A stretch of 64,000 bases of DNA, taken from the NCBI GenBank assembly GCA_965197745.1, contig CBDANS010000006.1, forward strand, positions 1,152,001 to 1,216,000, written 5' to 3'. The position numbers were made by a program, and so were the translations under genes. This stretch comes from Opitutales bacterium (lineage in GTDB: Bacteria > Verrucomicrobiota > Verrucomicrobiia > Opitutales > PNEW01). A model generated the notes under the pieces. It was given only the letters and a program-made list of their open reading frames with translations, searched no databases and had not been told where the DNA came from. Positions 3,348 to 46,086 of the stretch are shown here, piece by piece. Positions within the stretch are counted from its first letter, which is position 1, and every line of letters starts with the position of its first letter.

Positions 3348-4665
3348 TGGTCGTGACCACGAAAACTGGTACACTTGAAAAGTTAGTCTGGGTAACCTAG
3401 AAAGGACTCAGACAATGAAAGGCAAAAGATACACAACTGAAGAGAAAATACGGATGCTGCGGCAGGCGGACAAAGGGAAAACGATCCTGGAAGCATGCCG
3501 CGAGAACAACATTAGCGAACAGACCTTCCACCGCTGGAAGCGTGAGTTTGGGATGATTGATGTCGACCAGGCCAAGCGGATGAAGGAACTCTTTGAAGGA
3601 GAACGCGCGGTTAAAACGGATGCTGGCGGACAAGATGCTGGGGATAGAGATCCTGCAGGAGACCCTCGAAAAAAAACTGTAAGCCCTGGGCACAAGCGGC
3701 AAGTGGCAGAGAGACTTGTGGCTCGGGGCCAGTGTTCGATGCGAGCGGGGTGCCGGTACTTTCGGCTGCACCGTTCCACCTATGCGTATAAGGCGAAGCA
3801 TCCGGATGCTTGGTTAATGAAACTGAAGGCGGCAGTAAGGCGGTTATCACGGCAATATGCCAGGTGGGGCTATCCGAAGATCACGAAGCTGTTGAAAGAC
3901 GAAGGCTGGGAGGTGGGTAAACGTCTCGTGCAAGGTCTACGACGCGAACTGGGCTTGGCGATCCCCCAACGCAAGCCAAGACGTCGGGGCAGGGGTGTTT
4001 CCACCGGGCTGCCGACCAAGGCCGAACATCCCGGCCATGTTTGGACCTGGGATTTTATCCACGATAAGACGGTCCGCGGTGGCAGTTTAAAAATGTTGAC
4101 CGTGCTCGATGAGTACACCCGCGAGTGTCGAGTGATCCATGTTGATCGCCATATCAATGCGGAAACGGTGCGCGGTATCATGCAAAAACTGCTTGCCCGT
4201 CATGGGCCGCCACAATATATTCGCAGTGACAACGGTTCCGTTCCGAGGAGCGAAGCGACGACATGCGAAGCCATTCATTGAAAAGGAATTGAGAGCCTGG
4301 CTAACTGCGATGAAAATCAAAACCCTCTATATCGAACCAGGAAGCCCTTGGCAGAACGGATACATCGAATCGTTGCATGCCCGTTTTCGCGAGGAGTGTT
4401 TAAACCGTGAACAGCTATGGACTTTGACCGAAGCCCGCGTGGTGATCGAGGACTGGCGCTGGCTTTACAATAATGTCCGACCCCACCGCAGCCTCGGCAA
4501 TATCACCCCACGGTGCTTCGCTGAAGACATTAATACCGAAGGCTTGGGCTCCATTCGGGCTACGCCCTCATTGCGCCCAAGCCTTGACTTCCTCTATCAA
4601 CTTAACTTCAACATTAACCTCTCCAGACTAACTCTCTCGGTGGACCAGTTTACGTAACCCGATCA
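3348..4665 (+). mobile_element. IS3-family element 'IS-A', copy 1 (1318 bp); transposase broken by a +1 T and a 31-nt insertion
   Basis: TG...CA ends with imperfect IRs (TGGTCGTGACCACGAAAACTGGTACAC / TGATCGGGTTACGTAAACTGGTCCAC), OrfA HTH at 3415, A8 slippage site near 3669, rve motifs WTWDF, SDNG, PWQNGYIES; no flanking direct repeat. Confidence 0.95.
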
Positions 4666-7812: not shown

Positions 7813-8916
7813 TGACCTGTCCCCATAAAACTGGACTAGCCAAGATTTAATCTGGCATGGGGAAAAAGCTAATAAAGAATAGGAGAAAGAACCACCCATG
7901 AAAAGCAAAGGCAAACGCTATAATAAAGAACAAATCATCTATGCCCTGGGGCAAGTAGAAGGCGGTCGAAAGATCGCCGAAGGGTGCCGAGAGTTAGGGG
8001 TAAGCGAACAGACTTTTACCACCGTTGGAAAGGTAAATACGTGGGCCTGGGAATCAGTGAATTAAGACGGCTGAAGCAACTCGACGAAGAGAACGTCAGT
8101 TTGAAGAAGCTGGTAGCTGATCTGAGCCTGGACAAGCACATGGAGCAGGAAGTAATCGCAAAAAAGTTATAAAGCCAGTGGGCAAGAAGGCGATTTTGAC
8201 TGGTTAGTGGAAGCCTATGCGGTGAGCAAACGCCGGGCGTGCAGGTTGATGCAGATGTCTTGGTCGAGTTATAACTACCAGCCGGTGAAGAAGGACGAAC
8301 GGGCGCTGATCATGCGTATCTGTGACCTCGCCGCAGCGCGCGTGCGCTATGGGTATAGACGAATCACGGTGTTATTAAAGCGGGAAGGCTGGTCGGTGGG
8401 AAAGAAACGCGTCTATCGCATCTACAAGGGCGAAGGACTGGAAGTGCGCACGAAGAAACGCAAGAAGCGTGCCGCGCAAAGGCGGGTCTCACTGCCCGCG
8501 GCTTCAGCTGCCCAGGAGCGCTGGTCGATAGACTTTATGAGCGATCGACTGGCCAACGGCCGCCCCTTCCGTATTCTCACCTTGGTCGATCAGTATACCC
8601 GAGCTTGCCCACTGCTTCTGGCCGATACGTCCATCGGTGAGCGCAAAGTCGCTGCAGGAATCGGTCTTCCCGAAACCATTACCGTCGATAATGGTCCCGA
8701 GTTTGCCGGCAAAGTACTGGATGAATGGGCTTATGGCCATGGCATCAAGCTGGATTTTATCCGGCCAGGTCAACCCGTAGAGAATGGTTATATTGAGAGC
8801 TTCAATAGACGCTTACGTGATGAACTTCTTAACACGGAGCTATTTTGTACGCTGGCTGAAGCGAAAGAAAAACTTGAAGCCTGGCGGCTTGATTATAATA
8901 CTCAAAGACCACACAG
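7813..8916 (+). mobile_element. IS3-family element 'IS-B', copy 1; orfA frameshifted and right end truncated
   Basis: IRL TGACCTGTCCCC, orfA from ATG 7898 to 8172 with a frameshift near 8012, orfB 8207.. with WSIDF, VDNGPEF and ENGYIESFN; homology to copy 2 stops at CACACAG. Confidence 0.9.
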
Positions 8917-17180: not shown

Positions 17181-18521
17181 TGGTCGTGACCACGAAAACT
17201 GGTCCACTTGAAAAGTTAGTCTGGGACACCTGGAAAGGACTCAGACAATGAAAGGCAAAAGCTATACAACCGAAGAGAAGATACGGATGCTGCGGCAGGC
17301 GGACAAAGGGAAAACGATCCTGGAAGCATGCCGCGAGAACAACATAAGCGAACAGAGCTTCCACCGCTGGAAACGTGAGTTTGGGATGATTGATGTCAAC
17401 CAGGCCAAGCGGATGAAGGAACTCTTTGAAGGAGAACGCGCGGTTAAAACGGATGCTGGCGGACAAGCTGCTGGGGATAGAGATTGTGCAGGAGACCCTC
17501 GAAAAAAAATGGGAGATGCCGCTTACGCTCGGTAGTAAGCCCTGGGCACAAGCGGCAAGTGGCAGAGAGACTTGTGGCCCGGAGCCAGTGTTCGATGCGT
17601 GGAGCGTGCCGATACTTTCACCTGCACCGCTCCACCTATGCGTATGGGGCGAAGTATCCGGATGCCTGGCTAACGAAACTGAAAGCGGCAGTAAGGCGGT
17701 TATCACGGCAATACGCGAGGTGGGGCTATCCGAAGATCACGAAGCTGTTGAAGGACGAAGGCTGGCAGGTGGGTAAAGGTCTCGTGCAAGGTCTGCGACG
17801 TGAACTGGGCCTGGCGATCCCCCCACGCAAGCCAAGGCGTCGGCGCAGGGGTGTCTCCACCGGGCTGCCGACGAAGGCCGAACATCCCGACCCTGTTTGG
17901 ACCTGGGATTTTATTCACGATAAGACGGTCCGCGGTGGGAATCTCAAAATGCTGACCGTCCTTGACGGGTACACCCGCGAGTGCCGGGTGATCCATGTCG
18001 ATCGCCATATCAATGCGGAGAAGGTGCGCGGGGTCATGCAAAAACTGCTCGACCGTAATGGGCCGCCAAAATATATTCGCAGCGACAATGGATCGGTTCC
18101 GAGGAGCTAAGCGACGACATGCGAAGCCATTTATTGGAAGTGAATTGAGAGCCTGGCTAACTGCGATGAAAATCAATACCCTCTATATCCAACCAGCAAG
18201 CCCTTGGCAGAACGGATACATCGAATCGTTGCATGCCCGTTTTCGCGAGGAGTGTTTAAACCGTGAACAGCTATGGACTTTGACCAAAGCCCGCGTGGTG
18301 ATCGAAGATTGGCGCTGGCTTTACAATAATGTCCGACCCCACCGCAGCCTCGGCAATATCACCCCACGGTGCTTCGCTGAAGACATTAATACCAAAGGCT
18401 TGGGCTCCATTCGGGCTACGCCCTCATTGCGCCCAAGCCTTGACTTCCTCTACCAACTTAACTTCAACATTAACCTCTCCAGACTAACTCTCCCGGTGGA
18501 CCAGTTTGCGTAACCTGACCA
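17181..18521 (+). mobile_element. IS-A copy 3 (diverged), with an additional 23-nt insertion at the orfA stop
   Basis: Same IRs and ORFs as 3348..4665; many substitutions in the middle third. Confidence 0.93.
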
Positions 18522-22805: not shown

Positions 22806-22994
22806 TGATTTGCGATTGCCGATTTGCGATGAGGGATGTCGGGCTGCGCCTCGGTAGTCCATTGTGTTGAATAGCCACCAGCCGTCGCCAAGGCTATGGC
22901 AGGCAGGCAAGAGGTACAAAAAGCACAAGAGATATTCGTTTAGAAATCTGTTTGGGAACAGCCAGGCACAATCCGCAATCGCAAATCGACAATT
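22806..22994. repeat. Composite intergenic repeat (heptamer arrays with nested micro-palindromes)
   Basis: GATTTGC/GCAAATC heptamers in inverted arrangement around GGCTGCGCCTCGGTAG and GCCGTCGCCAAGGCTATGGCAGGCAGGC. Confidence 0.65.
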
Positions 22995-36608: not shown

Positions 36609-37926
36609 TGGTCGTGACCACGAAAACTGGTACACTTGAAAAGTTAGTCTGGGTAACCTAGAAAGGACTCAGACAATGAAAGGCAAAAGATACACAACTG
36701 AAGAGAAAATACGGATGCTGCGGCAGGCGGACAAAGGGAAAACGATCCTGGAAGCATGCCGCGAGAACAACATTAGCGAACAGACTTTCCACCGCTGGAA
36801 GCGTGAGTTTGGGATGATTGATGTCGACCAGGCCAAGCGGATGAAGGAACTCTTTGAAGGAGAACGCGCGGTTAAAACGGATGCTGGCGGACAAGATGCT
36901 GGGGATAGAGATCCTGCAGGAGACCCTCGAAAAAAAACTGTAAGCCCTGGGCACAAGCGGCAAGTGGCAGAGAGACTTGTGGCTCGGGGCCAGTGTTCGA
37001 TGCGAGCGGGGTGCCGGTACTTTCGGCTGCACCGTTCCACCTATGCGTATAAGGCGAAGCATCCGGATGCTTGGTTAATGAAACTGAAGGCGGCAGTAAG
37101 GCGGTTATCACGGCAATATGCCAGGTGGGGCTATCCGAAGATCACGAAGCTGTTGAAAGACGAAGGCTGGGAGGTGGGTAAACGTCTCGTGCAAGGTCTA
37201 CGACGCGAACTGGGCTTGGCGATCCCCCAACGCAAGCCAAGACGTCGGGGCAGGGGTGTTTCCACCGGGCTGCCGACCAAGGCCGAACATCCCGGCCATG
37301 TTTGGACCTGGGATTTTATCCACGATAAGACGGTCCGCGGTGGCAGTTTAAAAATGTTGACCGTGCTCGATGAGTACACCCGCGAGTGTCGAGTGATCCA
37401 TGTTGATCGCCATATCAATGCGGAAACGGTGCGCGGTATCATGCAAAAACTGCTTGCCCGTCATGGGCCGCCACAATATATTCGCAGTGACAACGGTTCC
37501 GTTCCGAGGAGCGAAGCGACGACATGCGAAGCCATTCATTGAAAAGGAATTGAGAGCCTGGCTAACTGCGATGAAAATCAAAACCCTCTATATCGAACCA
37601 GGAAGCCCTTGGCAGAACGGATACATCGAATCGTTGCATGCCCGTTTTCGCGAGGAGTGTTTAAACCGTGAACAGCTATGGACTTTGACCGAAGCCCGCG
37701 TGGTGATCGAGGACTGGCGCTGGCTTTACAATAATGTCCGACCCCACCGCAGCCTCGGCAATATCACCCCACGGTGCTTCGCTGAAGACATTAATACCGA
37801 AGGCTTGGGCTCCATTCGGGCTACGCCCTCATTGCGCCCAAGCCTTGACTTCCTCTACCAACTTAACTTCAACATTAACCTCTCCAGACTAACTCTCTCG
37901 GTGGACCAGTTTACGTAACCCGATCA
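36609..37926 (+). mobile_element. IS-A copy 2, almost identical to 3348..4665
   Basis: Same IRs and identical translated transposase ORFs; no flanking direct repeat. Confidence 0.95.
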
Positions 37927-44602: not shown

Positions 44603-45892
44603 TGACCTGCACCCGATTACTGTACCAGAGCCAGTGTTAGATCCGGCAGGGTGGTATGGGTTTTAATTTTCTTAGACATGGCTCTCTGGGCGTATTCGGC
44701 CGGAGGCCGATAGCCCAGAGAGCTGTGTGGTCTTTGAGTATTATAATCAAGCCGCCAGGTTTCAAGTTTTTCTTTCACTTGTACCAGCGTAATAAATATC
44801 TCGGTGTTAAGAAGTTCATCGCGCAAGCGTCCATTGAAGCTCTCTATATAGCCATTTTCTACGGGTTTACCTGGCCGGATAAAATCCAGCTCGATGCCAT
44901 GGCCATAAGCCCACTGATCCATTACTTTGCCGGCAAACTCAGGACCATTATCGACGGTAATGGTTTCGGGAAGACCGATTCGTTCAGCGGCTTTCGTAAG
45001 TGCTGCAGTGACTTTATGACCACCGATGGACGTATCGGCCAGAAGCAGTGGGCAAGCTCGGGTATACTGATCGACAACGGTGAGAATGCGGAAAGGGCGG
45101 CCGTTGACCAGCCGATCGCTCATAAAGTCCATCGACCAGCGTTCCTGGGCAGCTGAAGCCGCGGGCAGTGAGACCCGCCTTTGCGCGGCACGCTTCTTAC
45201 GTTTCTTCGTGCGCACTTCCAGCCCTTCAGCCTTGTAGATCCGATAGACGCGTTTCTTTCCTACCGACCAGCCCTCCCGCTTTAACCAGCCCTCCCGCTT
45301 TAATAACACCGTGATTCGCCTATACCCGTAGCGCACACGCGCGGCGGCGAGGTCTCGTATGCGCACAATCAGCGCGCGTTCGTCCCTCATCACCGGCTGA
45401 TAGTTATAACTCGACCAATACAACTGCATCAGCCTGCACGCCCGGCGTTTGCTCACTGCATAAGCTTCCACTAACCACTCAACAATCGCCTTCTTGCCCA
45501 CTGGCTTTATAACTTTTTTGCGATTACTTCCTGCAGCATGTGCTTGTCCAGGCTCAGATCAGCTACCAGTTTCTTCAAACTGCTGTTCTCTTCGTCAAGT
45601 TGCTTCAGCCGTCTTAATTCACTTATTCCCATGCCCGCGTATTTACCCTTCCAACGGTGGTAGGTCTGTTCGCTCACCCCTAACTCCCGGCACACTTCAG
45701 CGATCCTTCGACCACCTTCAACCTGCCTTAGGGCATAGATGATTTGTTCATTATTATAGCGTTTGTCAGGCCTTCTCGGCTGCGCCTCGTTTTCCTTTGC
45801 TTTTCATGGGTCGTTCTTTCTTCTATTATTTATTTGTTTTTCACCCATGCCAGACTAAATCTTGGCTGCTACAGTTTTTCGGGGACAGGTCA
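44603..45892 (-). mobile_element. IS-B copy 2, full length; orfA broken by a 28-nt insertion; 18-bp duplication in orfB
   Basis: TGACCTG at both ends; orfA ATG 45807, orfB 44617..45501 with DDE motifs and LKREGW twice. Confidence 0.93.
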
Positions 45893-46086
45893 ACTAAAAA
45901 AACTCTTGCCCAATTCCTGGCTGAAAATCAACAAAAAGCATGATTCCTGCCCATTCCTGCCAAGCATTTAGAGGCAACGTCAGGAAATCAGAGGAAAACA
46001 TAAATTATTTATGTATCGCTATTTAAGTTTAAACATTTATTAATAAGTGACTTATGAACATTACTAAGTTCCGTTCATAGTCGGTT
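45893..46086 (+). mobile_element. Element end with ATTCCT direct repeats terminating at TCGGTT
   Basis: Homologous to 28330..28523; the SBP frame resumes at GGT TAT ACA GTT. Confidence 0.7.

Follow-up and report, generated by a model that had tools for sequence, protein, structure and literature searches.

The window, as the 64,000-nucleotide stretch of Opitutales DNA analysed here is termed, contains on its minus strand a 1,290-bp insertion sequence element, IS-B copy 2 (44603-45892; ends TGACCTGTCCCC...GCAGGTCA), with whose edge the loose ends of read contigs at 44603 coincide. The features of IS-B are those of the IS3 family, with matches to PF01527 (E 1.2e-21), PF00665 (E 4.6e-19), rve_3 and HTH_21, terminal inverted repeats of the form TGACCTG...CAGGTCA and a slippery region reading GCAAAAAAG (A6G). 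The orfA frame (45507-45803, minus strand; HTH_Tnp_1, PF01527) is a stop-to-stop ORF of 98 aa, while orfB (44617-45558, minus strand) is open over 313 aa and includes the HTH_21, rve and rve_3 domains. Between the two lies the slippery site A AAA AAG (45513-45519, minus strand), presumably the site of the usual -1 frameshift into orfB, as in the IS3 family. An in-frame 18-nt tandem duplication within orfB (45268-45303; LKREGW twice) occurs in three IS-B copies that carry the segment described below, and is absent from one metatranscriptome contig.

In copy 2, a segment of 28 nt (45766-45793; minus-strand sequence AAAACGAGGCGCAGCCGAGAAGGCCTGA), of the variant beginning with AAAA, lies after codon 5 of orfA and holds the heptamer GCGCAGC and an in-frame TGA. 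Its flanks, AAAGG and CAAACG, are contiguous at 7911|7912 in IS-B copy 1 (7813-8916, plus strand), an otherwise decayed copy with an empty site and a cut 3' end. Comparison of the two copies bears out the preliminary description in so far as it reported 28 extra bases and a stop after thirteen codons. The ATG of orfA is found at 45807-45805 and the TGA (45768-45766) forms codon 14, leaving a truncated leader ORF of ATG, twelve codons and stop (45766-45807, minus strand; MKSKGKRGAAEKA). As the segment length equals 3n+1, the remainder of orfA falls in the +1 frame, which is open across the insert and has no ATG, GTG or TTG upstream of the helix-turn-helix. With a TGA at codon 14 and the helix-turn-helix part in a frame lacking a usable start, neither OrfA nor OrfAB would thus be produced by ordinary decoding. 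Among the Logan contigs of four runs, no joint or indel is listed at 45766-45793, and the sole RNA contig on IS-B ends at 45612, short of the segment.

The segment is found at the same site in six of the ten IS-B copies of this genome (G000) that keep their 5' end, the other four being empty, and in two of the twelve such copies in a sister-genus genome (G060), where the loops read ATA. Neither of the two IS-B copies of G032 carries it, and no IS-B match was found in G083 (82 % complete). It had been presented as a third, independent hit on a transposase gene; its recurrence at one site in both genomes marks it instead as an inherited, recombining allele. Searching the 4.45-Mb genome for the 25-mer core with up to five mismatches gave nothing outside IS-B save one unrelated match with five mismatches, and a scan of species-representative genomes, a collection that may omit near relatives, gave a single match in an unrelated Chlamydiota MAG gene, which is taken as chance. 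Small sequence variants distinguish the carrier alleles. Those of G000 begin with TTCA or AAAA and have a GCA or ACA loop, TTCA being the commoner and more widespread variant and AAAA that of copy 2 in the window. The carriers occupy six different loci and belong to different sub-lineages, and must thus have been transposed.

The empty state of orfA is ancestral, since IS-A, a separate IS3 relative, keeps uninterrupted the GKRY codons which the insert splits, and since an in-frame start codon exists in the empty form only. The reported lack of a target duplication holds for the TTCA variant, which has no flanking repeat, and not at face value for the AAAA variant, which is flanked by AAACG...AAACG; this repeat is read here as secondary rather than as a target duplication. 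At locus L025 of G032, a 7-nt tandem duplication (CAAAGG CAAAGG-A) is located exactly at the 28-mer site, which indicates that the spot is prone to slippage.

A tree of nineteen IS-B copies was built with the insert columns removed (200 bootstraps), leaving out the 5' fragment C7:1678088, the decayed C5:31485, the truncated L023, L037 (same place as L028b) and L034. The carriers do not form one clade in this tree, as the seven filled rows require five changes, at least three of which are forced by well-supported branches, and a single origin of the filled rows is seen in none of the 200 bootstrap trees. Aligned over 1,274 columns, the filled L022 and the empty L038 of G060 are the same apart from positions 95-96 and 130, the indel and three further sites that lie scattered. 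What has been copied between these otherwise identical elements is thus a stretch of about 36 nt that also carries three flanking SNPs, which shows that the 28-nt allele moves between IS-B copies by short-patch gene conversion. In all four empty copies of G000 orfB is shortened (230-259 aa versus 307-313 aa), and the copies with an intact orfB are carriers. No G000 copy has both genes intact and IS-B therefore looks extinct in this genome.

The whole is probably best accounted for by an old, shared and recombining insertion allele which disables orfA of IS-B and leaves its carriers non-autonomous. The 28 nt would have been inserted long ago at the 5' end of orfA in this IS3-family element, and the carriers would since have been spread by transposase supplied in trans from empty copies, a supply that seems clearer for IS-A, where intact empty copies exist. 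It is unlikely that the carriers are instead autonomous, with the insert a throttle on the transposase rather than a knock-out and with +1 slippage at AAA-A (codons 2-3) or AAA-G (codons 4-5) of the leader giving access to orfA. A slip at either A-run would indeed enter precisely the orfA frame, with no stop across the insert, and the carriers retain orfB (307-313 aa) and the A6G site where all four empty G000 copies are broken. Furthermore, orfB in a clade of three carriers (copy 2, C6:671212 and C7:976325) has ten synonymous and twelve non-synonymous changes, with 24 % synonymous expected (dN/dS 0.31-0.44; p = 0.024 in a binomial test that was not corrected for transition bias), and this skew, together with the intact orfB, hints that the carriers may still make some transposase. 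However, there are only 22 changes behind the skew, and variation that has been under selection can be brought in from other copies by recombination. Neither A-run is accompanied by a known stimulator, be it a rare codon, a stop or a suitably spaced Shine-Dalgarno-like element. The loop and stem of the hairpin drift uncompensated, and the carriers are 2.6-10 % apart, so that no recent burst took place.

The 28-nt segment had also been described as a hairpin. As such it is weak, the DNA fold of the insert region (-2.3 kcal/mol, under an energy model with no GNA-loop bonus) being matched or beaten by 155 of 200 dinucleotide shuffles. The core, with a 3-bp GGC/GCC stem, reads GGC-GCA-GCC, GGC-ACA-GCC, GGC-ATA-GCC or GGT-ATA-GCC across the alleles. 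GCGCAGC is kept in four of the eight carrier alleles seen, the others having ACA or ATA loops, and one stem includes a G-T pair. Compensating stem changes were not found among the segment alleles, and the core variation appears to be drift. No Rfam match was obtained for 45400-46000 at E values up to 1.

Mini-hairpins with a CGAG tag and GNA loop are nonetheless a real and large REP-like family in this genome. The preliminary description was thus right to propose a class of tiny tagged elements adding stops or frameshifts to IS3 transposase genes, for which filled and empty sites were found. The members take the form T(A/T)CCGAG, mini-hairpin, CGACATCTTCCA, with core heptamers GCGAAGC, GCGCAGC and ACGTAGT and with stems that covary (GGCGAAGCC, GACGAAGTC, CGTGAAACG and TCCCGC..GCGGGA). 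A strict scan distinguished 46 members, including 41 with a CCGAG head, 37 of which are in unique DNA; the TACCGAG head is present in 38 of the 46, and a relaxed pattern gives 275 matches. A related arm, consisting of TTGTCATTGCGAGGAG, a variable hairpin and GACGCGGC, occurs 69 times in the genome, and about half of these arms incorporate a nested mini-element. In all five filled/empty comparisons (three sites within IS3 transposase genes, a fourth following an A8 run, and an arm site), the element replaces A-R between S and T, and no target duplication was found at these five junctions. A motif, TTCCGAGGAGC-NNNN-GCGACGACACAAGCGAAGCG, lies within a longer palindrome (GGGCAGGATGAG...TCCATCCTGCCC) in unique DNA at C5:236555, C6:355558 and C6:355656 of G000, and is nearly identical to the insert at site 2 of the IS elements discussed below. 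Many dispersed copies, among them those at G000 C6:562586, C7:58805 and C5:499995, have flanking stretches of 10-14 nt that are alike on both sides (for example AATCCGCAATCAG ... AATCCGCAATCGG); the likeness may reflect a target duplication of unusual length or a larger repeat to which the flanks belong.

The search for a mobiliser flanked by the motif, proposed at the outset, had a divided outcome. Four small GIY-YIG genes encoding proteins of about 97 aa (G000 C7:1541878-1542337, C7:1545544-1546003, C7:483522-483957 and C6:787806-788269) are bracketed by related inverted TGTCAT-tagged arms. Three of the four left arms have a nested TACCGAG mini-hairpin, and the fourth represents the empty site GC-AA-TCCAG. 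Beside the single Y1 transposase gene (PF01797; C6:163380-163706), the motif is absent for 400 bp on either side.

Whether the 28-nt segment belongs to this family is a matter on which the evidence is about evenly balanced. It does include CGAG-GCGCAGC, in line with the motif class to which it was assigned, and its 12-mer CGAGGCGCAGCC is identical in a true member at 22835-22856 (minus strand; TACCGAG-GCGCAGC-CCGACATC). The likeness is statistically marginal, at p of about 0.02-0.04, the best local score of 12 being reached by 85 of 2000 shuffles, and with a smaller library from which this member is absent 401 to 857 of 1000 shuffles match as well as the segment does. A head-hairpin-tail model scores at least zero at 2702 of 8.9 million positions, or about 0.02 per 28-nt segment. 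The ends differ from those of the family: the segment has TTCACGAG or AAAACGAG, with an extra base, in the place of the head T(A/T)CCGAG, and its tail GAGAAGGCCTGA (model tail score -1.3 to -3.8 bits) departs from (C)GACAT...CCA and does not end in CCA. The empty site AAAGG^CAAACG, moreover, loses no base, contrary to the family junction. The segment may accordingly have begun, at about even chances, as one insertion of a CGAG-tagged family member whose 3' end has since decayed.

Clear family members are inserted at four sites in IS3 transposase genes, three of which interrupt a Glu codon at conserved motifs. These are site 1 (NGS|E|F; 73 filled and at least eight empty copies, with both states in at least three subfamilies), site 2 (LID|E|YTR; 30 filled and 9 empty), site 3 (RD|E|CLN; 14 filled and 28 empty) and the site after the A8 run of IS-A (4 filled and 35 empty). 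The site-1 insert of the IS-A DDE domain and the A8-run insert are taken to be the two others with which the 28-nt segment had been grouped. The former is present in all three IS-A copies of the window (37501-37534, plus strand, and also 4240-4273 and 18096-18129). Following the SDNGS codons, it converts GAG into GTTCC-GAG-GAGCGAAGCGACGACATGCGAAGCCA, with two GCGAAGC mini-hairpins and a net gain of 31 nt. The latter directly follows the slippery A8 run in IS-A copy 2 (17510-17535, plus strand; reverse complement TACCGAG-hairpin-GCATCTCCCA), and is also found at locus L054 of G060.

Programmed bypass or +1 recoding of the site-1 insert was considered and dropped on the finding of at least eight empty copies, four with open frames of 354-415 aa; the count of 38 out of 38 spanning alignments with the insert was an artefact of alignments that split at the gap and are blind to empty copies. 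One of the four empty IS-A copies with open frames matches a filled copy of its subfamily throughout the element, differing just in the insert patch and in a TTT/TTC change next to it, and G060 has about twelve identical empty IS-A copies with one long frame. The empty site-1 form is also represented in Logan contigs (X5 at depth 102; RNA run X21 at depth 22). As empty copies exist as DNA, RNA contigs of this form are uninformative on splicing. The filled IS-A copies are best read as non-autonomous derivatives with intact empty helpers at hand. In IS-A (3585-3604, 17418-17437 and 36846-36865), the helix-turn-helix and orfB share one frame and the leucine-zipper stretch is in the +1 frame (CTC TTT GAA). 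Comparing G000 with G060 shows conservative changes in the zipper frame but not in the through-frame. The contigs of four runs lack one T at CTC TTT GAA in 20-55 % of the depth, and no TT-for-TTT form of IS-A orfA occurs in the G000 assembly. Chimeric IS elements, represented by L014 and L020 of G032 and C7:1673745 of G000, combine an upstream half from one subfamily with a downstream half from another, and the site-1 insert is where they change over.

The three apparent transposase hits are alleles that have been copied many times, and it is thus events rather than copies that need to be counted. By events, four clear sites in IS elements (five with the 28-nt segment) stand against about 158 other matches and 69 arms, and over the total length, in which repeated DNA makes up 10.2 % of the genome, the inserts are not enriched in IS elements. 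Their high copy numbers there stem from the copying of the carrier elements. The case for a process that seeks out transposase genes, one of two alternatives offered in the preliminary description, therefore fails, and the other, that such elements are tolerated in dispensable DNA, fits better.

A more elaborate scheme is conceivable, and improbable, in which the tagged mini-hairpins replace A-R in S-AR-T targets by a precise mechanism, possibly on single-stranded DNA and with the small GIY-YIG nucleases. The GAG/GAA Glu codons of conserved IS3 transposase motifs would be recurrent targets, and filled alleles would overtake IS families by biased short-patch conversion, acting as a self-spreading IS brake, and the 28-mer of IS-B would be an early product of the process that has since decayed. 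A dedicated process, for example the same small nucleases, that drives hairpins into transposase genes for silencing or homing, with the 28 nt as one product, is very unlikely. It could draw on the four clear inserts in IS3 transposase genes (three at Glu codons of conserved motifs), on the excess of filled over empty copies at site 1 (73 versus at least 8, in at least three subfamilies), on the chimeras that break at the insert and on the related arms at the GIY-YIG genes. However, beyond the count by events (four to five IS sites against about 158 other matches and 69 arms, with repeats at 10.2 % of the genome), the filled:empty ratios go both ways (30:9, 14:28, 4:35 and, for IS-B, 6:4), the S-AR-T target serves outside IS DNA as well, at the arm site GC-AA-TCCAG, the IS-B junction departs from that rule, and the flanking SNPs that travel with the insert fit plain gene conversion. 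An ancestral origin of the 28 nt, with the empty copies arising as deletions between the AAACG repeats bordering the AAAA variant, is extremely improbable, for although slippage there would give exactly the AAAGGAAAACG of some empty copies, orfA with the segment has no in-frame start codon, the GKRY codons of the IS-A relative are uninterrupted, the more widespread TTCA variant has no AAACG repeat and the sister-genus copies are mostly empty.

The family cores GCGAAGC, GCGCAGC and ACGTAGT, the second of which is present in the 28-nt insert, are akin to the d(GCGNAGC) mini-hairpin DNA described in two reports (PMC13037366, PMC3201870). Unlike this DNA, four of the eight IS-B carrier alleles have lost the GNA loop (ACA, ATA), and stability in vitro says nothing about function in this genome. 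Among the known systems compared, the closest to the tagged mini-hairpins are tagged REPs and the Ssn/SRM systems. Palindromic repeats tagged GTAG or CGTC make up the former (Di Nocera et al. 2013, PMC3733652), in a study that also deals with Rickettsia RPEs and with intragenic REPs of Opitutus terrae. Like these REPs, the mini-hairpins are a genome family with a short conserved tag, a variable stem-loop with covarying arms and a short tail ending in CCA. Their copies are numerous and dispersed; some are nested within longer palindromes, others are intragenic. They differ in having a CGAG tag, in place of GTAG/CGTC, and stems that in many cases have no more than 2-3 bp closing a GNA loop. REP/RAYT systems combine a GTAG/CGTC tag with a stem of 6-9 bp and a RAYT gene flanked by repeats; here the tag is CGAG and the stem 3 bp. 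Unlike the intragenic REPs, the inserts in IS elements break the frame rather than add residues, and the 28-nt IS-B segment is without the ends of the family. The Ssn nucleases (Chenal et al. 2025, PMC11893778) are associated with hairpin repeats of the NTS/SRM type, an arrangement to which the four small GIY-YIG genes (97-aa class) bracketed by TGTCAT-tagged arms recurring 69 times may be likened. The published SRM pattern (HGTCWYN(0-2)YYVSBRHN(0-5)WNVSBRGN(0-2)RNCYNB; PMC11893778) was not enriched in the genome, with 16 matches versus 19 in the reversed control, and gave no match in 45700-45900, in the arms or in IS-B. In a PDB search with the GIY-YIG protein the closest solved structure was a UPF0213 protein (1zg2, E 1.5e-5) rather than SsnA. 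An Ssn-related motif would also be cleaved, as single-stranded DNA, by a cognate GIY-YIG nuclease of the cd10448 subfamily, for which the small GIY-YIG genes here may be candidates. Full-text literature searches retrieved no paper dealing with hairpin repeats that lie within the transposase genes of IS elements, which is not proof that none exists.

A further parallel is offered by non-autonomous IS derivatives, in which a small transposase lesion leaves the ends intact and which occur alongside intact helpers, sometimes in greater number. Ectopic gene conversion likewise shuffles alleles among IS copies. Unlike in the usual derivatives of this kind, the lesion of IS-B is a 28-nt insert, possibly derived from a REP-like element, and no intact IS-B helper is left in this genome. 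The analysis has as a by-product provided clean filled/empty pairs for a REP-like hairpin family, which define its junction (A-R replaced, with no target duplication) and show gene conversion over very short tracts to be the route by which inserts pass from one IS copy to another. Filled copies unable to encode a full-length transposase outnumber the intact helper copies. The 28-nt segment, though real, is an unremarkable lesion: an insertion allele that is inherited and recombines within a decaying IS family.
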